Source: a virus (taxonomy: Duplodnaviria > Caudoviricetes). Taken from it: a stretch of 64,000 nt of DNA. The translations under genes were made by a program, and so were the position numbers. The notes below the pieces were generated by a model. It saw only the letters and a list, made by a program, of their open reading frames with translations. It was not told where the DNA came from and did no database searches. The stretch is from the IMG/VR virus record IMGVR_UViG_3300026549_000050, positions 51,302 to 115,301 of that record; one strand, given 5' to 3'. Below, in pieces: positions 3,782-63,564 of this stretch. Every line of letters starts with the position of its first letter. The stretch's first letter is position 1.

Positions 3782-6700
3782 ATGGCAGAAACTGTTGATA
3801 TTCTATTACGAGCGCGAATGGAAGCCAACGAAGTTACGTCTAGTATTGGCCAAATTCAAAAGTCATTACAAAGCTTAACTTTACCTAAAGGACTTTCCAA
3901 TGATTTAGAAAAAGAATTTAGTAAAATAGGTCCATTATTAAAAGATTATCAAAAGCAATTAAACAAGGGGTTTTCTAATAAAAAAGACCTCCAAACTTTT
4001 AGTGCCTTAAAAGAGCAAATTGGAGATACTTTAGGAACTATAAAAACACTTGTTAATCAAGCCAATTCGCAACAAATTAGATTAAAAGTAGATACACAGG
4101 CTATCGACCAGTTACAAAATAAAATTGTTTCTAAAACCGAAGCTTTACAAAAAGCATTAAGTCAAGTATTTACTAAATCTGTTAATGCGGATAATATAGC
4201 TACTCAGTTTGATAAAGTATTACAATCTACTTCTAGGTCTACCTCAGTTAAAGGAATGATTGGTAATGCTGGTAAATTATTTAATGCTCAAGAATATGCA
4301 GCATATAATGCAGAATTAGATAAAATTAAAAATAAGATTTTAAGTCTAAGTACAAGCAAAGTTAATTTTGCTAAATCATTAGGTGTTAAAGACGCTGAAA
4401 AAGATATTGCTGCAGTTGAGGCAAAAATTACTTCTTTTTTCAATAAATTAAAGGTTAATGAAGGTAAAGTTCAATCTATCGAATTACTTAAAAAAGAACT
4501 GCGTGAAATGGGTGTTGAACTTGAACAATTAGATATATCTTCTAAACTAAAAGGTGCTGAAGAAGTTAATAGTTTACATGCCGGATTACAACAGATAGAG
4601 CAAGATTTTCATAATACTGGCAACGCGGCGAATGATGCTGCTTCTGGTATTCTTTCTATGAAAGATCAGGTGGGCCAGTTAAGACAATCGACTCAATATT
4701 TCTTTAGTTTAAGAAATATGATAAATCTCTTTAAGAGAGGAATAGATGATGCGGTTAAGTCGGTTAAAGAATTAGATGCCGCCATGACGGAAACCGCAGT
4801 AGTTACCACCAATACTGTTGGTGATATGTGGAATATGCTTCCAGAATATACCAAAAATGCTAATGCATTGGGAGCAACTGTTTTAGATATGTATAAGGCA
4901 ACAACTTTATACTATCAACAGGGTTTAAATGCAGAGCAGTCCATGTCAATTGCTGCTGAAACCATGAAGATGGCTAGAATTGGTGGATTAGAGGCTGCCG
5001 ATGCTACCGATAAGATGACTGCTGCACTTCGTGGATTTAATATGGAAATTAATGAGTTGTCGGCACAACGCATTAATGACGTATATTCTAATTTAGCTGC
5101 TAAAACCGCATCTAATACTGAAGAATTAGGTAGTGCTATGCAACGTACCGCCTCTATTGCTCATTCCGCAGGCATGAGTTTTGAAGGTACGGCGGCATTT
5201 CTAGCACAGGCAATAGAAACTACCAGAGAACCAGCCGAAAACTTGGGTACGGCGATGAAAACAATTGTTGCCCGTTTCCAAGAATTAAAAGAAAATCCAT
5301 TAGAAATTGTTGAAGTAGATGGAGAGGAAGTTAGTTATAATAAAGTAGATACTGCATTACAATCTATTGGAGTTTCTTTAAAGGATGCTAATGGTCAGTT
5401 TAGAAATTTAGACAAAGTATTTTTAGAAATAGCCCAAAGATGGGATAGTTTAACACAAACTCAACAGCGTTATATAGCCACAACCGCGGCGGGTTCTCGT
5501 CAACAATCACGTTTTATCGCGATGATGAGTAACTATGAACGTACTATGCAGTTGATGAGCTATGCCAATGATAGCGCTGGAGCTTCTAATGAACAGTTTA
5601 ATAAAACTATGGATTCATTAGAGGCTAAATTAAATAAATTACACAATGCTTGGCAAGCCTTTATGATGGGTATTGCAAATAATACTTTTGTTAAAGGCGC
5701 GGTTGATGGTTTAACTTTTGTTATAAGTCAAACAAATACATTAATTAATACTTTAAGTGGTGGTCGTGGTGTAATAAAATCTTTTCTTTCTTTATTTACT
5801 GCCTTTACCGCTTTAAAAGGATTAGGTCGCTTCGCTAATGCTGCCATTGGTGGTTTGGGCGGTATGCTTGATCCACAATCTAGTTTTAAACAAGGGTTTT
5901 TTGGTGGCGGTATTATTGGCAATAAAGCTAATGCTAATGCGACTCAAGCAAGAATGATTTCTGACCCTATTGTTAATGCTATCAATAGATTATATCAGGC
6001 TCAAACAGGAAAGACGGTTACTAAAGATAGTCAAACTAGCGCCAAAGCAGATTATAAAGCTTTTACAGAAGCTAATACTGGTTTACGAGGAACAATTAAT
6101 CAGTTAAAACCTGGAGAACAATTTTCTATTGGCGAAGCCTATAGTAAGATTGATAAATTAGATACTCGTCAACAAAAAGCTGTATTACAACAATTGCCTG
6201 GGCTTACACTAAGTTTACAGAAAAATGGTATTAAATTTAATACAAAAGATATAAGCAGAAGTTCACAAGAACTTTTAAAAGTCTTTAATAAAGAAATAAA
6301 TGATGGTCTTAAAAATGGTAATATAGATTCTCAAACAGCATTAAAAATGTTTGGCTCTCCTCAAGAATTTGCTAAAGCCATGTCAGCCAGAGGAGATGAT
6401 TATGCTAGAGCCGCACAAGAAGTTCTTGGAAATAGTTTCGATAGGTCTACCTATAGAGAAGATTTAGCTAACAAATTATTACAAGTTGAAAAATTTAAAA
6501 ATATGGATAAGGATAGTTTTAATAACTATCTAGACAAGGCTGTAGCAAAAAGAAATGAGAGAGATCAACAGGAATTTGCAGGATTCGCTACAAGTCAAAT
6601 AAGCAATGGTGCAAAATTAGCAAATAATATTGCTTCAGTTGGACAGGCCGCTACAATGGCGGGCCAAGGTGTAGCCCAGCTTGGTATGCAATTATCCAAT

Positions 6701-9700
6701 GCTGGATTTAAAACTGCGGGCGCAGCAGTTACCGACTTAGGATATAAAATTTCTTCTTTAGGTATGATTGCCTCAAGTGTAGGTTCAGTTTTTGGTAAGA
6801 TTTTTGCCAATGATGGTCCTATGGCATTAATTAATGCTCATCCAGTTATGGCAATGGTTACTGCAATTGCCGCGATTGCTGGTACTGTGGCATTTATTAA
6901 TAAACAAATAAAAGAAAATGCAAAAAATTCTGCCCAAGAAATTCAACAAGCTTATAGTGAGAGTGTTAAAGAAGCTTCTGATAAAATAGATTCACTTAAA
7001 GCTAATGTAAGCACTTTTAAACAACTATCTAAAGGCGTAGATAAGTACGGACATAATCTTAGTTTAACTGAAGAAGAATATGACCAATTCTTATCTACTT
7101 CTAAGGCTTTGGCAGAAACTTCTCCAAGTTTAATTAAAGGCTATGATGCTCAAGGAAGAGCAATTATAGCAACTGGAGATGCGGTTGACCAATTAATTAA
7201 AAAGCAAGAGGACTTACGTAATACAGCTAGAGATAATTATATTACCGGCGAAGCCTTTAGTACAAATATAGCTGGTATTCGTGCGGGAGAAAATTATGAA
7301 TCTATAGTTAGTTCCGAGTCTTATATAGACGAATATGGAACTACACAGTTTAAGCAAGTTTTCATGGGAAAACAAATTGCTACTTTTAATAAAGCTGTTA
7401 AAAAAATAGATAATAAAAAATTAAAAAATCTCAACGCAGAAATTACTAAATTAACAGGCCATGAAATTGATTTGGCCAATATAAATGACCAAAGTGTTAA
7501 AGTTATTGCCAGCCGATATCAAGACATTAATCGCTTAGTAGAAGAAAACTCTCAAAAATTAGATGATAAAACTCGCGAAGGATTACAAAAAGCTTTCTCC
7601 GGCATAGGAGAAGATTATAATTCTTTCTTATCAGATTTACAACCATTAACTGAACAACTTGGTTTATTTTTAGATTCTAAGGGATTGAGTGTTTTAGGAT
7701 TAGGCATTAGTGAAGAATTTGTTGCTGGTTTTAATAAGGGATTAGAAGATTTAGCCTTAACTTCAGTAACTGAAAACTGGGGAGGCAGTCGACTCCAGCG
7801 CGAGGCCGAAAATTATGCTAAAGGATTTAGAAATTTAACAAAAGAGGGCAGTGCTTATTCTAGAACTTTAGAGCAAATTGATAGAATACAGCAAGATTAT
7901 CTTAAAAATGCTGGTGAAACCGGAGCAATTGAAGATTATAATAAAAATATTCAAGAACAAATAAATCATTTAAATTCTTTAGCTAATCAATATGATGGCA
8001 CAAGCGCGGCTGGTACAGCTTTCGCCGAGATGTGTCGTAGCGCCGCAGCTGATGCGCAGATGTTCACAGAGTACGGCGTTGCTTTGTTGGGTGAGGGTTT
8101 AAATACTCTTGCTTCAGAATTTTCTCAGGCTCGTGAAGCCCAAAAACGTTTTGAAGAAGCCACTGCGGGCGGAGATTACTATACTGCCGCGGAAGGATAC
8201 AAGTCCATTATGGACACCGTAATGAACGAAAAGAATGATGCAGGGCAGGGATCTCTTACGGCTTGGCGCGGCGCAACGGAATTATTAGGAGCTTCTGTAG
8301 TTGATAATGCAAAAAGTTGGGATGAAGTAGCAAGTAAAATACAAAAAATCGCTCCTATGTTTGAGGATGGAGCCGAAGGAGTATTAGCCTTTAATGATTT
8401 CTTAGTTGAAGCTTGGCACAATGCCGGTGGGGCCTCTGGAGAACTTGCAAAACTTGGCTCAGTTATTGATGGTGAATTTCATTTTGATTTTGATACACAA
8501 AATGAAAGTTTAGAAAAGTTTGCAAAACTATTAGGCATATCTGAAGGAGCTCTCGCGGCATTAATAGATAAGAGTAGACAATGGGTACCTTGGGATATAA
8601 GTGACCCAGATATGATTATGTCTGCTCTACGTAATAGTGAAACGACTATTCAAGGAAGTAATGGTACATTATATACTGCTGAATCAGCCTTCCGTGACGA
8701 GGCTTATCGTAATGAAATTGTTGGTGATAATTATAAGGAAACTCGAAAAACGGTAGAGGATCGAGGGGTTAAACTTTTAACTGTTGATGAATTAACTGCC
8801 AAAAGTCAAAGTGGAATTGTTGCTAATGATATTTTAAAAGATTTAAATATTAGCAGTCAACAACAAAACAATACATTAGACAATGCTGTAAGAGTATTTT
8901 CTGGATTAGGATTTGGATTAGAAGATATAACCACGGTTTTAACTAAACAAGGTATGTCTTTACAAGAGGGTCCAGTTACGGCAGAGCAAATAGCCGAGGT
9001 TTATGACCAGCAAGCTTTTGCAGCAGAAAATCCAACTGTTGCTGGAATCGCTAGTGATACTGGAATAATTGCCAGCAATACATCCGCTTTATTAACCTCT
9101 ATGGGTATTTTAGATAAAAATACAAAAGAAAAGGTTGATGAAGTTACTAGTGATAAATATGTTGATAATGCCTTTTTAGACTATAAACGCGAAAGAAAGG
9201 GCGCAACCAATCAAGCAGAACGTGAGCAAGCTCTTAATAATGTTCAAGCTAAAATTGATAAGTATGATAGCGACATTGAGCGTTTAAAACAGGGGCAATC
9301 AACCCACAAGGAAGATACTGCAACCTGGAAAGAGTATCAAGAAACCATTGATAAATTAGAAAAAGCTAGAAATAATTTATCTGGTATGGTGGAAAAAGAT
9401 CAACAATTATTAATTGATACCGCTGAACAAGCTCAAACAATTATTCAAGACATTGGTATTTCTAATGAAAATACGGATTTTCTCAATGCAAATGCATTAG
9501 ATGTCTCTAATGCTCTTAATAACACTGATATTAATGCAGGAATTGCATCTTTGGCAGCCCTTAGACAAGAAGGTAGTCTAACTAAAGATACAATGTTTGC
9601 TTTGGCTAGTGAATTTCAGAAAATACATAATACAGATTTATCACAATTAACTTATGGAGAACTTGCTAATCTCTATACTCAACTTGGTTTAGGTAAAGAA

Positions 9701-33673: not shown

Positions 33674-36025
33674 TTAAAAAATTAACAGTCCGACCACCTT
33701 AGAATTTGAAAGTTTAATTGACTTTGTACCTTGCGCCCCTTTGGATAGTAGATTTACTTCGTTTAAGTTGATTTTTATCTGCGCATTGGAAGCAACTACG
33801 ATAACTTCCTGTTCGTTAAGTAGTGGATTGAAGGAAATTAATCTGTCGTCGGTATCTTTAAGAGCGTGGATTTTACTTCCTTTAGTTCCACGTCCTGTGA
33901 CGGTAAACTCTTTCGCAGCAGTTCGTTTTATATATCCCTTTTCGCTTATGCTTAGAAATTCTTTAGTATCTTTTGGTATAGCCCGTGCTTCAACTAAAGA
34001 GTCTCCATCATTAAGGGTTATTCCCTTAACTCCCCTTGCTACTCGTCCAATCGGACGAATATCCTTTGTTTCACAAATTACGAACTGGCCGCGCGCCGTC
34101 AACATACCAACTCGCTCTTCATCTACAAAAAGAATTGACACAATTTCATCGTCGTTATCAAGATTTAGAGCCTTAACACCACCTTTGCGTTTGGTGTTAT
34201 ACTCTGAAAGTCTACTCTTTTTTAAAATACCTTTTTTCGTGAAAAAGATTATGTGTTCTTTTTGGTTCTTTTTGTTTAAGAAAACGAGTTCTTCAATTTT
34301 TTCGTCTGAGCTGGTTTCGGCTATACTTTCGATTGGGATTACCTCTTCAAAAGGAAGGTCGGATGCGGTGATACTGAAACAATTGCCTTTATTTGAAAAC
34401 AACAGAACTGTATCGAGATTAGTTCCCGATGCAGTAGCAATTACATATTCACCTTTGCTCATTTTGAATTTGTTTCCTACCCCACCGCGTCTTTGAGTAT
34501 AAAGAGTTGATGTGGTGGTAACGTATAGGTTATTTTGGTTTGACAGATTAATTAAAAGTTCCTGCTTTTCAGTAGGTTCTTCTTCATCTGTTGCGATGTT
34601 GAGAATTTGAGTTCTACGTGCGTCGCCAAATTTGTTAGCCACTTCACGCCAACCGTTGATTAGCTCTTGGTTGAATAACTCTTCATTTCTAATTATATTA
34701 TAGATAAAATCTCTTTCTTTTTCAAGTTTTGATTTTTCAGATTTTAACTTTTCTACTTCAAGGTGTGCCAAACGCGATAGCTTCATATCGAGAATGGCTT
34801 TAGTTTGTACGTCAGTAAGTTTGTACTCGGCGGCCAGTCGCTCGCGCGCCTTCAACGGAGACTCCGAAGATTTGATTATACGGACTACTTCGTCGATATT
34901 TGCGAGACAGATTAGAAGTCCTTCAAGAATATGGAGGCGGTCTTCGATTTTTTTAATGTCAAATTCGAAGCCACGCATATATACTTCTTTTTCGTGGTCG
35001 ATGTGCGCTTGGAGCATTTCTTTCCAAGTGAAGACTTTTGGAAAGCGACCTTTATCTAACATTGTAAAGTTAATTCCGTAGTGAGACTCAAGTGAAGTAT
35101 TTTGGTAGAGATACTTGAGGACTTTGTTTGGATTAGCTTTTTTAGTTAGGTAGATTTTAATTAGTGGAGTTTTTCCAGTGAGGTCGTTAAAACGGTCTAC
35201 GCCTGGATTTTCTTCACTATTTATTATATCTTCTAATTGACCGCAGATTGTATTGGTGTAAACTGAGTATGGTATTTCAGTTACTACAAAACAATTGTCT
35301 TTTTTATCGTATTCGACTACGCTTCTTAATTTACAAGCAAAACCAGTACCGTGTTTCATAGCATCTTTAACGGTATTTTCGTTTAATAATACTGCACCTG
35401 TAGCAAAATCTGGGGCGATGTAGATGTCTTCGAAATCACAGTCTGGATGGAGAAGAAGATATTCTAACTTCTCATTCATTTCTTTTAAATTATACTGTGG
35501 TATGGAGCAAGCCATACCGATGCCAATTCCTGTACTACCGTTACAAATGTTGTAATAACCTTTTGTTGGTAGAACCGCTGGGTATTGTTTTGTATTGTCA
35601 TAACTATCGCGCCATTCTTCTATTGTGTCTTTATTTATATCTGTAAAAAGAATGTTTGATAATTTAGAAAGTCTACTTTCTGTATAACGCATCGCGGCCC
35701 AGTTGCCAGATTCGATGAGTGAACCAGCATTACCTTTTACGTCAATTAGTGGATAACGCATAGCAAATGGCTGTCCCGCACGCATTATAACACCTTCACA
35801 CGAGCTGTCTCCGTGAATGTAGAAGTCTGCCATAGCCATACCAACGGCGTTGGCGGTTTTCTTATATGGCTTATCGCTTGTTAGTTTATTTAAAAGCATT
35901 GAATAGAATATTTGACGTGCGGAGGGTTTTAAACCATCGCGCACATCAACGAGGGCGCGGTTTTGAAGAACTGCACCAGCGTATTGTACGAAACTATCTT
36001 CTATAATTGGTTTTAATTTACTCAT
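33674..36025 (-). CDS. gyrA: Type IIA topoisomerase subunit A (gyrase-like)
   Basis: DGLKP, HGDSS, AAMRYTE catalytic Tyr, QRRGGVG GyrA-box, beta-pinwheel repeats (GRVARGVKGI, GRGTKG). Confidence 0.9.
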   Translation of the reverse strand: MSKLKPIIEDSFVQYAGAVLQNRALVDVRDGLKPSARQIFYSMLLNKLTSDKPYKKTANAVGMAMADFYIHGDSSCEGVIMRAGQPFAMRYPLIDVKGNAGSLIESGNWAAMRYTESRLSKLSNILFTDINKDTIEEWRDSYDNTKQYPAVLPTKGYYNICNGSTGIGIGMACSIPQYNLKEMNEKLEYLLLHPDCDFEDIYIAPDFATGAVLLNENTVKDAMKHGTGFACKLRSVVEYDKKDNCFVVTEIPYSVYTNTICGQLEDIINSEENPGVDRFNDLTGKTPLIKIYLTKKANPNKVLKYLYQNTSLESHYGINFTMLDKGRFPKVFTWKEMLQAHIDHEKEVYMRGFEFDIKKIEDRLHILEGLLICLANIDEVVRIIKSSESPLKARERLAAEYKLTDVQTKAILDMKLSRLAHLEVEKLKSEKSKLEKERDFIYNIIRNEELFNQELINGWREVANKFGDARRTQILNIATDEEEPTEKQELLINLSNQNNLYVTTTSTLYTQRRGGVGNKFKMSKGEYVIATASGTNLDTVLLFSNKGNCFSITASDLPFEEVIPIESIAETSSDEKIEELVFLNKKNQKEHIIFFTKKGILKKSRLSEYNTKRKGGVKALNLDNDDEIVSILFVDEERVGMLTARGQFVICETKDIRPIGRVARGVKGITLNDGDSLVEARAIPKDTKEFLSISEKGYIKRTAAKEFTVTGRGTKGSKIHALKDTDDRLISFNPLLNEQEVIVVASNAQIKINLNEVNLLSKGAQGTKSIKLSNSKVVGLLIF

Positions 36026-54894: not shown

Positions 54895-55278
54895 ATGTCT
54901 TATATCCCATACAACCCGAATCCCAAAAAACTCTCAGTTGGCGATTGCACAATCCGCGCTATTTCTTGTGCGCTAAATTATTCTTGGAAAAAAACTTATT
55001 TGTCTCTTGTCATCCAAGGCTTCCTTATGTATGATATGCCTTCAGCCAACAGAGTTTGGGGAGAATTTTTAAAATCAAAAGGTTTTAAAAAATTTCAAAT
55101 ACCAGATACGTGTCCAGATTGTTATACAATTAGAGATTTTTGTTATGAAAATCCAGTTGGTACGTTTATTCTCGGCACAGGAGAACACGTAGTTTGCGTC
55201 ATAGATGGAGACTACTACGACTCCTGGGATTCGGGGTATGAGATACCTATCTACTATTTTACAAGGAGATATATATAA
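54895..55278 (+). CDS. Putative papain/C39-like peptidase (cluster gene 1)
   Basis: GDCTIRAIS...GEHVVCVIDG.YYDSWDS: candidate Cys-His-Asp triad. Confidence 0.55.
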   Translation: MSYIPYNPNPKKLSVGDCTIRAISCALNYSWKKTYLSLVIQGFLMYDMPSANRVWGEFLKSKGFKKFQIPDTCPDCYTIRDFCYENPVGTFILGTGEHVVCVIDGDYYDSWDSGYEIPIYYFTRRYI

Positions 55279-55692
55279 ATGGCTACGAATTACAATTCTT
55301 ATTTTCCGCAGACGTATACGCAGATGCCATACGTTTACGGCGGCGGTGCGGTCGCACCCTCGACGTCAACTGCGCCAGTTTCAAATCAAGGTTCTACAAG
55401 CTTTATAAATTGGGTACAAGGTGAGGCGGGCGCCAAATCAATCAATGTACCGGCGGGCCAGACAGTTTTATTAATGGATTCAGAAACAAATGTATTCTAT
55501 GTAAAATCATCTGATGTGTCTGGTTTTCCACTTCCTATACGTACATTCAAATACGAAGAGATATCCCAGGACGCGACCGAGGACGGCCCGCCGCCCTCAA
55601 CGTATGTCACAAAGGAAGAACTCGACGAACGCCTTACTGAACTCACATCTAAAATAAAGGAGGGTAAATCAAATGGGAAATTCGATATATAA
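55279..55692 (+). CDS. Conserved hypothetical protein (cluster gene 2)
   Basis: WVQGEAGAKS...LMDSETNVFYVKSSD, YVTKEEL. Confidence 0.7.
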   Translation: MATNYNSYFPQTYTQMPYVYGGGAVAPSTSTAPVSNQGSTSFINWVQGEAGAKSINVPAGQTVLLMDSETNVFYVKSSDVSGFPLPIRTFKYEEISQDATEDGPPPSTYVTKEELDERLTELTSKIKEGKSNGKFDI

Positions 55693-55870
55693 TGATTTTA
55701 ACCCTTCTAATTTTTCTAATTTCTTAAATCAATTCAATCAATTCCGTTCTACTTTTTCTGGTAACCCCAAGCAACAAGTACAACAGCTAATACAAAGTGG
55801 GCGTATGAGCCAACAACAATTCAATCAACTTTCACAACAAGCGACTCAACTACGTCAACTTTTTAAATAG
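55673..55870 (+). CDS. Gln/Asn-rich small protein (cluster gene 3)
   Basis: NPKQQVQQLIQSGRMSQQQFNQL; AAGGAGG RBS. Confidence 0.7.
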   Translation: MGNSIYNDFNPSNFSNFLNQFNQFRSTFSGNPKQQVQQLIQSGRMSQQQFNQLSQQATQLRQLFK

Positions 55871-55932
55871 GGCTGTATTGTAAATCTTGTCTACCATTAA
55901 TTATTTCAATCTAATAAAAGGAGGTAGACAAT

Positions 55933-56023
55933 ATGTCTTTAACAGAAGGAATGAGTGCTGCTGATATCGCTGCAGTAACTCGAAATGATGGATTCGGCGG
56001 ATTCGGCGGAGATGGAGCCTGGT
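55933..56023 (+). CDS. Exon 1 of intron-split membrane/coiled-coil protein (cluster gene 4)
   Basis: AAGGAGG RBS, MSLTEGMSAADIAAVTRNDGFGGFGGDGAW plus a T that joins exon 2 in frame. Confidence 0.85.
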
Positions 56024-56201
56024 AGATAACTGCCACTTTATGGGGTGACTCATATTGAAAAATCGCGGAATTAAGCGGGAAGGCTGAGATGCTAATCCGA
56101 ACCGAAGGCTATAGGTAAAATTATAGTCAGGGGCAACGCATAGGTTCTGAAACTCAATAGAGAATATAATGAACCCACGAGGCCGCGATAACTTTTAGAA
56201 A

Positions 56202-56230
56202 TTGACATTTTAATTAAATTATGATATAAT
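56202..56230 (+). promoter_or_regulatory. sigmaA promoter inside intron driving the HNH gene
   Basis: TTGACA-17-TATAAT with TGA extension. Confidence 0.8.
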
Positions 56231-56258
56231 ATAATTGGAGATAAATTAAGATGTTAAT

Positions 56259-56747
56259 ATGGAGTATTTTATGCAAAAAGGAAAATTTTATACGGTTGAT
56301 GATTACGACATTACTTATAATGGAGAAATAATCAATAAGCATAACGGACACGTTTTAAAAGGACAACCTAATTCAAAAGGATATTTAAGAGTTACCATTG
56401 GTAAAAAAATGATGTTTATTCATCGCTTAGTCGCTGAAAAGTGGGTGCCTAATCCAGAACATAAAGAACAGGTGAACCACAAAGATGGTAATAAATTAAA
56501 CAATTGTGCTGACAATCTTGAATGGGTTAATAATCAAGAGAATCGTAATCATGCTGTTGAAGAATTTTTACATCTTCAAGGCGAGGATTGTTCTTATTCT
56601 AAATTAGACTGGAATAAGGTAGAATATATTAGAAGTAATCCAGATAATCTTTTGCATAGAGAACTCGCTGAAATGTTTGGAGTGGCAAGAACCACTATAG
56701 GTGATGTTGTTAATTATCGCACCTGGAAAAAGAAACCTAAAAGTTAA
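56259..56747 (+). CDS. Intron-encoded HNH homing endonuclease (I-HmuI-like) with C-terminal HTH
   Basis: GYLRV...IHRLVA...VNHKDGNKLNN.ADNLEW...EN; lies in the P8 loop. Confidence 0.9.
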   Translation: MEYFMQKGKFYTVDDYDITYNGEIINKHNGHVLKGQPNSKGYLRVTIGKKMMFIHRLVAEKWVPNPEHKEQVNHKDGNKLNNCADNLEWVNNQENRNHAVEEFLHLQGEDCSYSKLDWNKVEYIRSNPDNLLHRELAEMFGVARTTIGDVVNYRTWKKKPKS

Positions 56748-56820
56748 AAAGGTATGCTGAACTATTACGAATATGAAGTAATAGAAGTAAAAGATAAAAA
56801 ACTTTTACGATAACAATTTG

Positions 56821-57503
56821 GGTTAATCGTTCTTTTCTTATTCATGTTCAATGGATGGGGCGGATACGGCTACGGTGGCGGAATGAATGGCGGAGTTGGT
56901 TCCGAAGTACAACGTGGTTTTGACCAGAGCGCAATCATGGGCGGATTAAGTGGCATCCAAGCAGGACTTACTAATGGTTTTGTAGATACTGCGGCCGCAC
57001 TCTGCAACGGTTTTGCGGGCGTTAATGCCGGAATCGCAAATGGTTTTGCACAGGCTGAAATTGCAAACAACGCAAGACAAATCGCTGATATGCAGACTAA
57101 CTTCGGACTTCAATCTCAACTGGCTCAGTGCTGCTGCGAGAACAGATTAGCAAGTGCTGATTTAAAGTATACTATCGCAACAGAAAACTGTGCTGATAGA
57201 ACTGCTTTATCGGATGCACTGAGAGATGTTCTTGAATCTCAAAACGCAGGAGTACAGAGAATACTCGACACAATGTGCCAGGATAAGATTGATGCGAAGA
57301 ATGAAAAAATCGCAGACCTTGAGCGTCAGCTTACAATGGCTAGTATCGCTGCTTCACAAGGCGCGCAGACTGCTGCTATTATCGCTAACAACGAGGCTCA
57401 AACAACTGCTCTGGAACAATATCTCGCACCAGTACCACGTCCAGCTTATATCGTAGACAATCCTAATGGTTGCAACTGCAATACTTGTGGCTGTGCATTT
57501 TAG
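56821..57503 (+). CDS. Exon 2 of intron-split protein (spliced product 257 aa: TM, Gly-rich, coiled coil, CCC, Cys-rich tail)
   Basis: GG TTA ATC GTT CTT TTC TTA TTC ATG gives ...GAW-W-LIVLFLFMFNGWGG; in frame with ORF 56844..57503. Confidence 0.85.
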
Positions 57504-57514
57504 GAGGTAGTTTT

Positions 57515-57964
57515 ATGGCAGAATATTTAGCTAATGCAGTACAAACGGTTGAACTTAATCAGCCTATTGTTTTTACGGCTTCTATTCCTTGTGTTCGTGG
57601 AAATGTAGTCCACGAAGACGAGACAGGAATTTTTATTCTCAGAGGTAATTCTACAAATTGTTTTGCAAGATACCAAGTTACTTTTAACGGAAATATCGCA
57701 CTTCCTACTGGCGGTACAGTCGGGCCAATTGCAGTTGCTATTGCGACCAACGGAGAGGCTAGACCTACTTCCCGCGCGATTGTGACCCCGGCCGCGGTAG
57801 AAGAATATAACAACGTTACAAGCACAGCGATTATAACTGTGCCAAGAGGTTGTTGTTATAGCTTAAGCGTTAGGGCGGTTAGTGGTGTGACTGAAGATGG
57901 TGATACACCAGCGCCTGCGATTGACGTTATAAATTCTAATTTGGTAATTACAAGAATTGCATAG
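57515..57964 (+). CDS. Beta-sandwich protein, BclA-C/C1q-like (cluster gene 5)
   Basis: AGGAGG RBS; QTVELNQPIVF...GIFILRG...YQVTFNGNI...NSNLVITRIA. Confidence 0.55.
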   Translation: MAEYLANAVQTVELNQPIVFTASIPCVRGNVVHEDETGIFILRGNSTNCFARYQVTFNGNIALPTGGTVGPIAVAIATNGEARPTSRAIVTPAAVEEYNNVTSTAIITVPRGCCYSLSVRAVSGVTEDGDTPAPAIDVINSNLVITRIA

Positions 57965-57974
57965 GAGGTGTGTA

Positions 57975-58433
57975 ATGGAAAAGAAAACTATGGATACTCT
58001 CCGTGCGATGATTTGTGGAGAGTTGGAAGATATTGCAAAGAAAGGTGTTTTATCGCATGAAGCTTTGGATATTACGAAAGACTTACTTGATGCTTATAAG
58101 AATATTGAGAAGATTGAGAAATATATCAAAGAGAAGGAAAGCGAATGGGATATGGGATATAGTCAGAGGAAGTATTATATAGATGCTGATTATAATCCTT
58201 ATGGACAGAACTCATATCGTGGACCAATGAATTATGATATGTCTTACGCACGTGGCGGCCAGTCGTATCCAAGCGGAAACTCATATATGTATCCTATGTA
58301 TATGAATCAGGGATATGCGCGCACTGGCTCTCCTCATGAAATGGTTGAGGAGCTAAGGGGTATGATGCATGAGACTACAGACCCAACGGTTAAATCTGCT
58401 ATTTCGGAAGCCATTAAGAAGGTGGAGAAGTAG
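57975..58433 (+). CDS. Helical, Tyr/Met/Gly-rich low-complexity protein (cluster gene 6)
   Basis: AGGAGG RBS; helical ends with a central SY/GY/YAR-rich region. Confidence 0.65.
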   Translation: MEKKTMDTLRAMICGELEDIAKKGVLSHEALDITKDLLDAYKNIEKIEKYIKEKESEWDMGYSQRKYYIDADYNPYGQNSYRGPMNYDMSYARGGQSYPSGNSYMYPMYMNQGYARTGSPHEMVEELRGMMHETTDPTVKSAISEAIKKVEK

Positions 58434-61700: not shown

Positions 61701-62036
61701 ATGGAGGTACATATGAATAACGGAACAAAAATTAGAACAATACTTGTTATTGCATCCTGTCTCAATACTGCTCTTCTTGCTACAGATGTAGCACAGTTTG
61801 GCAACGAGACAGTTAATCTTATCTATCAAATTCTTTCTGTACTTGCAAACTTTGTAATTGTATTCTGCGCCACATGGTTTAACAATGACTACACAGAAGA
61901 GGCTTGTATTGGTACGGGAGTAACTCGTCAGCTTAAAGCTGAAAGCAAAGACAACTATGTAGGCGATTATTTTTATCAAGACGATGAATATGCAGAGTTT
62001 GATAATGAAAATATGGAGGAAACAATAGATGAATAA
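61701..62036 (+). CDS. Holin (SPP1-like)
   Basis: GTKIRTILVI...two TM helices...WFNND; probable start 61713; precedes endolysin. Confidence 0.75.
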   Translation: MEVHMNNGTKIRTILVIASCLNTALLATDVAQFGNETVNLIYQILSVLANFVIVFCATWFNNDYTEEACIGTGVTRQLKAESKDNYVGDYFYQDDEYAEFDNENMEETIDE

Positions 62037-63564
62037 GGCTTTATATAAACAAGCCGATTCCCGTTGGGGTTCTAAACCTTACCCAACGAAAGCTTCATCT
62101 TTTGCTGGCAACGGGTGCGGCTGCTGTGCTTGTACGCATCTTATTATTGAGCAAGATAAATATAAAAATTATACACCGGAAAATATTCGTCCCTGGATGG
62201 TTAAACAAGGATTTGCCTATGTTAACCAAGGTACAACCTGGAATGGTATTAAGTTAACTCTTGAACATTACGGCTATAAAGTTGTTCATATTGGAATAAA
62301 CGACCCAATGACTAAAGCTTGGACAGAATTAAATAAGGGTAATCGTATGGGAATTATTCTTTTCCTTGGCGGAAAAGGACCAGATGGTACAATTTGGACT
62401 ATGGGTGGTCACTATGTTGCTTTTACAGATTATTATGTAAAAAATGGAAAGCATTATTTCTATACTAAAGATAGTGGCTCACGCAATCGCGATTCTGCAA
62501 AAAATGGTTATTATACTTATGAAGGTTCGATGAAGGGCTTAATTTACCAAATGTGGATTGTAGAAAAGCCAAAAGCTATAGCAACTTCTGCAACAAAAGT
62601 TACAACCAATACTTCTTCTTCTGTGACGGGAGTATTTGATAAGACAAATGTAAAAGCCTTACAAAAACTTTTCGGTACAACTCAAGATGGAATCATTAGT
62701 GGACAATTGGCTTCTTTAAAACAATATCACAAAGGTTTTAAAAATTGTATTAAATATGGAACGGGTGGTTCTGCGCTTGTTAAGGCGATTCAGAAATATT
62801 TAAATATGTCTGGACCAGACGGTTATCTTGGACCAAATACTATAAAAGCAATTCAAAAATTTGTAGGAACTACTGCTGATGGTATTTGGGGAGAATATAC
62901 TTCTAAAGCTGTTCAAAACTGGATTATAAAAAATCCAACCTTACCTCAAAAAAAAACTAACACAACTAAAATAAAAGGTATGGATGTCAGCACTTGGCAA
63001 GGGAATATTAGCAAAGCCAATTTTGAAAAAGCCAAAGCATCTGGTATTGAATTTGTAATTTTAAGAATAGGTTATACTGGAAGTAAAACCAATAAACCTA
63101 CGATAGATGACACTTTTGAAAATAATTATAAAAATGCTATCGCGGCGGGATTACCAGTTGGTATTTATTATTATTCATTAGCAACAACAGAAGCTAAAGC
63201 AAAAGAAGAGGCTAACTTTTGCATCTCTAAATTAAAAGGTAAAAAAATTACTTATCCAGTTTATATCGACGTAGAGGATCCTAGTAAGCAAGCAAAACAG
63301 TCTAAAGCTACTTTGGCGGCGGTGTGCAATGTATTTTGTAATACCATCAAAGCTGCAGGTTATAAGCCAGGTGTTTATGCTAGTTTAAGCTGGTTTAACG
63401 ATAAGATTGGCAATATTACAGCAAATCATTCTAAATGGGTAGCTCAATATAATAAAACTTGTGATTACAAGGGTACATATGACATATGGCAATATAGTTC
63501 TTCTGAGGCTGTTCCAGGCATTGGTAATAAGGTTGATGTAAACTGGTGCTATAAGAAATTTTAA
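62029..63564 (+). CDS. Multidomain endolysin: C39-like peptidase, PG-binding repeats, GH25 muramidase
   Basis: YKQADSRW...GCG...GHYV; DGIISG/DGYLGPNT/DGIWG; GMDVSTWQG, YIDVED, WQYSS, VDVN. Confidence 0.85.
   Translation: MNKALYKQADSRWGSKPYPTKASSFAGNGCGCCACTHLIIEQDKYKNYTPENIRPWMVKQGFAYVNQGTTWNGIKLTLEHYGYKVVHIGINDPMTKAWTELNKGNRMGIILFLGGKGPDGTIWTMGGHYVAFTDYYVKNGKHYFYTKDSGSRNRDSAKNGYYTYEGSMKGLIYQMWIVEKPKAIATSATKVTTNTSSSVTGVFDKTNVKALQKLFGTTQDGIISGQLASLKQYHKGFKNCIKYGTGGSALVKAIQKYLNMSGPDGYLGPNTIKAIQKFVGTTADGIWGEYTSKAVQNWIIKNPTLPQKKTNTTKIKGMDVSTWQGNISKANFEKAKASGIEFVILRIGYTGSKTNKPTIDDTFENNYKNAIAAGLPVGIYYYSLATTEAKAKEEANFCISKLKGKKITYPVYIDVEDPSKQAKQSKATLAAVCNVFCNTIKAAGYKPGVYASLSWFNDKIGNITANHSKWVAQYNKTCDYKGTYDIWQYSSSEAVPGIGNKVDVNWCYKKF

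Follow-up and report, generated by a model that had tools for sequence, protein, structure and literature searches.

The interrupted gene

The stretch of DNA analysed here (the window, 64 kb) is the 3′ part of a 115,301-bp IMG/VR virus record that has direct terminal repeats (IMGVR_UViG_3300026549_000050), and positions are those of the window unless another sequence is named. In it, a gene for a 257-amino-acid (aa) phage protein is divided at 56024-56820 by an intervening sequence that contains an open reading frame (ORF) for an HNH homing endonuclease. We put the probability at roughly 0.9 that this sequence is a mobile group IA intron, predicted to be spliced from the transcript of the host gene. 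The parts of the split gene are as follows.

55920..55924, + strand: Shine-Dalgarno sequence GGAGG of the split host gene, 8 nt ahead of the ATG at 55933 (sequence reading)
55933..56023, + strand: exon 1, 30 codons and the first base, T, of the Trp31 codon; collinear with intron-less homologues
56024..56820, + strand: predicted group I intron, 797 nt, with its terminal (omega) G at 56820; core homologous to sequences in AR9 gyrA and other phages
56821..57503, + strand: exon 2, bases 2-3 of the Trp31 codon, then LIVLFLF... to the stop codon; phrog_16490 family, collinear with homologues

The protein sequence encoded by exon 1 begins MSLT and runs to GDGAW, and the exon ends TGG T; a TAG stop that starts at 56023 closes its frame after 30 codons. 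Exon 2 opens with GG TTA ATC at 56821. When 56024-56820 are conceptually removed, T and GG form a Trp codon and the resulting 774 nt comprise an ORF of 257 aa with its stop codon; the predicted ligated junction reads ...GCCTGGT/GGTTAATC... (the slash marks the splice junction) and the protein ...GAW-W-LIVLF.... These exon and intron coordinates, the T/GG junction and the 257-aa product had been proposed in a first-pass annotation made from the sequence alone, and all were verified in the sequence. The same annotation had noted that the ORF track misses the gene, and indeed the program-made list holds at this place only a 30-aa ORF and a 219-aa ORF (56844-57503) that starts from an internal ATG. 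The latter matches phrog_16490 (1.7e-31) at profile positions 44-263 of 286, and since the profile is matched only from position 44, exon 2 alone lacks the N-terminus of the protein. Gene callers would thus yield a 30-aa stub, the HNH gene and an N-terminally truncated ORF, and the true 257-aa product is missed. Two other kinds of intervening element were considered and rejected: an intein, because a stop codon directly follows the junction and the ORF is out of frame, and a group II intron, which was ruled out on size and architecture.

Homologues that lack the intervening sequence

Relatives of the host gene in IMG/VR number at least 593, and the best 80 loci were compared. The spliced 257-aa protein aligns over residues 1-257 with the products of single uninterrupted ORFs (L008-L015, L026 and others), the closest intron-less relatives being 76-88% identical to it. 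In the human fecal phage contig L003, which has the same upstream and downstream neighbours as the window, the uninterrupted homologue reads ...GGDGAWWLIVLFLF...; the same motif is continuous in Butyrivibrio virus Ceridwen and Dulem virus 33, and many related phage contigs read GDGAWW-LI(V/I)LF unbroken. The contiguous GAWW-LIVLF that the proposed junction predicts for homologues is therefore present, and intron-less alleles, the search for which had been suggested in the first-pass annotation, were found, their DNA running through the junction uninterrupted (GCNTGGT/GGYTNAT). A megablast of the region against GenBank phages returned zero near-identical matches, and a search of IMG/VR with the junction 16-mer gave 11 matches, 10 of them by chance and without the intron core.

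A covarying ribozyme core

The intervening sequence can be folded into the complete set of helices listed here.

56039..56054, + strand: P2, 6 bp, with a GUGA (GNRA) tetraloop (sequence reading)
56063..56188, + strand: 5′ core domain, which holds P3, P4, P5, P6, the P7 5′ strand and P7.1
56063-68/56183-88, + strand: P3 (covariation alignment)
56076-79/56096-99, + strand: P4 (covariation alignment)
56082-84/56091-93, + strand: P5 (covariation alignment)
56102-03/56130-31 and 56107-14/56121-28, + strand: P6 (covariation alignment)
56138-42/56753-57, + strand: P7, GCAUA/UAUGC, perfectly complementary
56143-47/56171-75, + strand: P7.1, with an inner hairpin 56153-55/56160-62; both covary
56189-98/56737-46, + strand: P8, 10/10 bp, enclosing the HNH ORF
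56747-52, + strand: J8/7, conserved together with the P7 3′ strand 56753-57
56762-68/56778-84, + strand: P9, a perfect 7-bp stem
56787-93/56802-08, + strand: P9.1, a perfect 7-bp stem

Helices P3, P4, P5, P6 and P7.1 with its inner hairpin were scored in an alignment of 13 related cores. In this alignment pairing is seen in 95.7% of the pair cells, whereas sliding of the partners leaves 35-45%; compensatory changes on both sides occur in 24 of the 31 pairs, and none of 500 shuffles reached any of the observed measures. The coordinates of P3 and P7 cross, which is the pseudoknot typical of group I introns. P7 is paired in all eight introns that were compared after trimming of their ORFs, but it is invariant and hence uninformative for covariation. 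The pairing of P8 is kept with other sequence in L016 (two compensatory pairs), L034, L005 and L007; in L034 the sequence is entirely different from that in the window and the helix is still 10 bp long. P9 and P9.1 show compensatory changes in L016 and in both introns of the fecal phage contig MT835481. Among the joining segments, J3/4, J6/7 and J8/7 are conserved, the block of J8/7 and P7 in every family member examined, and J4/5 and J5/4 are A-A loops. Extra helices of the P7.1 type between P7 and the P3 3′ strand define subgroup IA, and the P7.1 arm in this position places the predicted intron in that subgroup.

Most pairings of the first-pass annotation stand as they were drawn: P1, P7, P8 with all ten of its base pairs and the P9 hairpins are perfectly complementary, and the GTGA loop of P2 is present. 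Its P3 (56062-68/56183-89) is perfectly complementary as well but has to be shortened by one pair, since T56189 belongs to P8 and cannot sit in both helices and only 4 of 8 relatives form the 56062/56189 pair; P3 is therefore 56063-68/56183-88. AR9, SscS-F1 and MT835481 also have a P2 that covaries and is capped by a GNRA loop. The helix is cleanly gone from L016 and L034, the two closest introns at the same site, though kept in distant family members, and from this loss P2 seems to be dispensable or easily lost in the lineage.

Predicted splice sites and the internal guide

56020..56035, + strand: P1 hairpin, 56020-25/56030-35, with U56023.G56032 at the 5′ splice site (sequence and guide covariation)

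P1 consists of 6 bp, the U.G wobble U56023.G56032 among them, and the internal guide (56027-56035) has a second partner in exon 2, at 56821-25, with which it forms P10. Across the ligated junction, UGGU/GGUUA, nine bases in succession can pair with the guide, two of them as G.U pairs. Five further contigs (L016, L034, L110, L116 and L145) carry an intron of the same family at the same codon of the host gene. All six introns at this site, that of the window included, end in G, and in five of the six the guide spans the ligated junction continuously over 9-14 bp. Four of the five guides in the other contigs are complementary over 10-14 bp to their own, differing exon sequence, and that of L110 has a single-base mismatch at +1. 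This covariation of P1 and P10 with the exon sequence gives strong comparative support for the exact junction. The proposal of a group I intron with an HNH ORF in its P8 loop is thus upheld by the collinearity of the exons, by covariation and by the homology of the core to sequences in genes that are annotated as joined or in pieces.

We envisage the following pathway. In the transcript of the host gene, P1 would form between the guide and the last bases of exon 1, which puts U56023.G56032 at the splice site. The G-C pair of P7 would bind a free guanosine, and this would attack after U56023. The terminal G56820 would then occupy the same guanosine site while P10 (56821-25) aligns exon 2, and ligation of the exons would produce the ...GAW-W-LIVLF... 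reading frame. Transcripts that start from the candidate promoter in the P8 loop (below) would carry no 5′ half of the ribozyme, and the HNH gene would be expressed from them independently. The HNH enzyme would nick or cut intron-less alleles near GCNTGGT/GGYTNAT, and recombinational repair would copy the intron together with flanking exon sequence into them, that is, homing.

The HNH gene in the P8 loop

56202..56230, + strand: candidate sigma-70-type promoter in the P8 loop, upstream of the HNH ORF; hexamers 12/12, 17-nt spacer, TG before the -10 hexamer
56271..56747, + strand: HNH homing endonuclease ORF, 158 aa from the ATG at 56271 (Pfam, PHROG and PDB matches)

The HNH ORF most likely starts at the ATG at 56271, ahead of which GGAG is found at 56261-64; the longest frame begins at 56259 (162 aa). 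It matches Pfam HNH_3 (6.9e-9; 35.7 bits against a cut-off of 24.8), phrog_59 (1.6e-42) and I-HmuI (PDB 1U3E; 1.8e-9 over residues 11-94), and the His/Asn motif block NHKDGNK..NN...NL.WV is kept. For the N-terminal DNA-binding module NUMOD4 the score was 15.9 bits, the cut-off being 23.4. The product is thus a putative I-HmuI-like HNH endonuclease in which the motif is intact, and a search of the genome found no other HNH gene of this type. The promoter hexamers are the same in L016, and a consensus promoter within the P8 loop suggests that the nuclease can be expressed independently of the host gene. The stop codon of the ORF falls inside the P8 3′ strand, and in L110 the ORF extends through J8/7 and P7. 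Because the 3′ end of the ORF overlaps the ribozyme, translation and folding should exclude each other on one RNA.

Genes split by free-standing homing endonuclease genes are known from T4-like phages, and an HNH gene with its own predicted promoter could be such an insertion, in which case no intron would be present and the host gene would be made as two separately translated pieces that reassemble. This we consider extremely improbable. Exon 2 has, on reading its sequence, neither a start codon nor a Shine-Dalgarno sequence at the junction, and its first ATG (56844) lies within the hydrophobic helix with no Shine-Dalgarno sequence ahead of it. Furthermore, the approximately 320 nt of non-coding sequence round the ORF are a conserved, covarying ribozyme fold, and versions without any ORF occur at the same site.

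The closest counterparts by endonuclease are the DNA polymerase introns of SPO1 and SP82, which encode I-HmuI and I-HmuII and are likewise phage group I introns with an HNH homing endonuclease of the nicking type; phrog_59 is also found in polymerase introns of related Bacillus phages, and no other family of intron-encoded nucleases is as common in the group I introns of Bastillevirinae. The SPO1 and SP82 introns differ in their host gene, and protein identity is confined to the N-terminal/HNH part.

A wider family of phage introns

About 20 phages in GenBank have sequences that match the 5′ core (56062-56193) with 72-78% identity. Among these are the gyrA genes of AR9/PBS1, whose coding sequence (CDS) is annotated as a join of three pieces, and those of phiR1-37 and BpSp. 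Other matches lie in Staphylococcus phage vB-SscS-F1, where an ORF is flanked by two pieces annotated as 'major tail protein', and in an Exiguobacterium phage, just after terL. The intervening sequences of AR9/PBS1 gyrA, like those of phiR1-37 and vB_BpuM-BpSp, share with the window the block of J6/7 and P7, the P7.1 arm and the block of J8/7 and P7. They interrupt gyrase A, whereas the intron in the window interrupts a protein of unknown function; moreover, both AR9 copies are ORF-less, stand in tandem and have a longer P9 region.

The GCAUA of the P7 5′ strand is invariant in five compared cores and the whole of P7, GCAUA/UAUGC, in the eight trimmed introns, and more than 100 IMG/VR contigs have a core motif with GCAUA in it. 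The first-pass annotation had rightly pointed out that this P7 differs from the common GACUA; given its invariance in relatives and the number of contigs with the motif, it is a trait of the family and not a peculiarity of the copy in the window.

The members of the family vary in arrangement. In AR9 gyrA (L004, 1940-2720) two nearly identical ORF-less introns lie only about 450 nt apart. MT835481 (L007, 930-3130) contains two members about 1 kb apart, one ORF-less and the other with an ORF in P8. The member in Listeria phage LIS04 (L006, 1071-2140) apparently has no P8, and an 'endonuclease' ORF is located upstream of its core; this region is also annotated with intein fragments and adjoins a terminase gene. 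A second copy of the intron was not found in the genome studied here. A core-like motif at 35753 was considered as one and rejected, having no other intron features and being antisense to a long ORF.

Presence, absence and probable spread at the insertion site

Several states of the insertion site were observed in related phages: an empty site, introns with an HNH ORF (797, 777, 703 and 756 nt), an intron with a 53-aa ORF (389 nt) and an ORF-less intron (241 nt). Homing elements are understood to pass through a cycle of invasion, decay and loss, and these states would fit such a cycle. In L116 (about 6690-6830, minus strand), the 53-aa ORF with its hydrophobic stretch replaces the HNH gene in the P8 loop, and it could be a degenerate remnant or non-nuclease cargo.

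Among the best 80 loci, only L016 and L034 have interrupted host genes, and the host proteins of L110, L116 and L145 are homologues of only 25-37% identity. The three alleles with an intron that appear in a tree of the host protein do not group together; each has intron-less nearest neighbours. L016, which has the intron, differs from the intron-less L015 at 50 places over approximately 3,350 aligned nt, and 48 of these differences fall in the interval from -153, where the contig ends, to +286 relative to the site, with only two in the next 2,900 nt or so. L034 and L035, likewise a near-identical pair of alleles with and without the intron, are 97.7% identical overall in the compared region; their differences are clustered at -14..+31 and at +184..+391, and other mosaic patches lie further off. 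Clustering of differences round the insertion site is what homing with co-conversion of the exons predicts. The locus thus offers a clean natural presence/absence polymorphism with clustered differences, which is consistent with co-conversion, and these patterns of sequence are signs of a recent spread of the intron among related phages.

Points that weigh against a splicing, mobile intron

Several points count against the reading of 56024-56820 as a functional mobile intron. The classical P7 consensus is GACUA/UAGUC, from which the P7 here differs in two base pairs. P2 is short, and it is absent from two relatives at the same site (L016 and L034). The covariance-model search proposed in the first-pass annotation fell short: the Rfam model RF00028 scored 11.5 bits (E = 5.2) at the intron against a gathering score of 50, and a search of the whole genome with it gave no match. 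Furthermore, the catalysis of splicing, its GTP dependence, the activity and specificity of the nuclease and the use of the promoter are all deduced from comparison and motif. Lastly, the HNH ORF is 79% identical to that of L016 at the nucleotide level and the exons 78%; since the ORF is no more conserved than the exons, the copy in the window may have been inherited vertically. Nothing in this comparison points to a recent acquisition of the copy.

Little weight attaches to the silence of RF00028 as counter-evidence. Run on four related loci, with AR9 gyrA and an ORF-less member among them, the model likewise gave no match at E <= 0.01, so that its failure reflects a lack of sensitivity to this family. 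A score under the threshold could also be expected of a decayed intron that no longer splices, and the host gene would then be a pseudogene in this phage. We regard this as very unlikely. Neither exon is damaged or out of frame, and their joined product can be aligned with its intron-less relatives over residues 1-257; all helices are perfectly paired; the HNH ORF has remained open and retains its motif; and the guide matches the exon sequence of this phage itself.

A different alternative is that the intron is genuine but not self-sufficient, needing a protein helper or conditions in vivo, so that expression of the host gene would be tied to the state of the infected cell. In a study of Bastillevirinae, eight introns are reported to have spliced, four of them in infected bacteria alone, with no splicing in vitro. 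P2 is minimal in the window, and with the 3′ end of the ORF overlapping P8, translation would compete with folding, as it would in L110, where the ORF runs through J8/7 and P7. However, all core helices and junctions are intact and conserved, and the persistence at this site of a 241-nt version without an ORF is what a self-sufficient ribozyme would lead one to expect. On balance we think dependence on such help unlikely, and we favour a mobile group IA intron that would splice by itself.

The intron and its relatives may together make up a distinct and abundant lineage of phage group I introns, marked by the GCAUA/UAUGC P7 and a conserved J8/7 and missed by the single model of Rfam. One branch of it would have long been settled at one site, the first codons of a hydrophobic helix in a non-enzymatic protein of a gene cassette, cycling there through forms with an HNH gene, with a small ORF or without any ORF and still homing in natural populations. 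We put this forward tentatively, as a possibility to which we give somewhat less than even odds. In a bolder version, the efficiency of splicing may gate the timing of production of the host protein.

Host genes of phage introns and consequences for annotation

A recent survey counted more than 100 phage group I introns, mostly in genes for nucleotide metabolism, polymerases and terminases (NAR 2025 gkaf121), and its hosts also include lysin, tail tube, capsid, prohead protease, RNA polymerase, gyrase B, psbA, tRNAs and a 'virion/hypothetical protein' (NAR 2025 gkaf121, table S1). Late or structural genes thus have precedents in the orf142 (tail tube) introns of Staphylococcus phage Twort and the lysin intron of a Streptococcus thermophilus phage (NAR 2025 gkaf121, table S1); these interrupt other host proteins and can be likened to the present case by type of host gene only. 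The first-pass annotation had considered the host gene unusual, and it is indeed new for a phage intron, but since the published list is already broad it is a new entry on that list and not a departure from it. A group IA intron that carries an I-HmuI-like HNH gene in a peripheral loop is a textbook element; what is new is only the host gene, a non-enzymatic protein of unknown function joining the hosts of phage introns. The finding leaves the understanding of how group I introns work unchanged. Its main value lies in the correction of the annotation, in the documentation of an intron family missed by Rfam and in a natural example consistent with co-conversion.

Relatives with an intron at the same site have the same split arrangement, and the same miscalling is therefore expected in them. 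Because Rfam is blind to the family and more than 100 contigs contain the core motif, many phage genes in metagenomes are probably mis-called, and screens based on Rfam under-count phage group I introns.

The host protein and its gene neighbourhood

After a short N-terminal segment, the host protein has a single hydrophobic helix, followed by a Gly-rich linker, an extended helical region and a Cys-rich tail. Searches with the 257-aa sequence gave nothing significant in Pfam, a profile search of the PDB returned coiled-coil noise only, and in the ESM Atlas the protein falls among viral hypothetical clusters only. An AlphaFold2 model built with 53 homologues has low confidence (pLDDT 56.8) and shows a short helix over WWLIVLFLF and two long helices. 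The first-pass annotation had called the product a membrane protein. It does have one short hydrophobic helix, from which alone that identity was drawn; the hydrophobic stretch is about 15 residues long with no flanking basic residues, and a membrane-anchor-like role is thus plausible but unproven. The position of the intron points to GDGAWW/LI as the part of the host gene under the strongest constraint, and this may be of use in later studies of the cassette.

The host gene is one of several small genes in a conserved block, which has the tail genes (for Dit and large tail proteins) on one side and the endolysin on the other.

54895-58433: small-gene run, comprising a 127-aa phrog_3754 gene, a 137-aa phrog_21718 gene, a 65-aa phrog_22984 gene, the split 257-aa gene, a 149-aa phrog_20016 gene and a 158-aa ORF

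Four of these six genes stand in the same order in the human fecal phage contig L003 (1061-3122). Further downstream, a 111-aa ORF (61701-62036) lies directly upstream of the 511-aa endolysin gene (62029-63564, phrog_291), which is the usual position of a holin.

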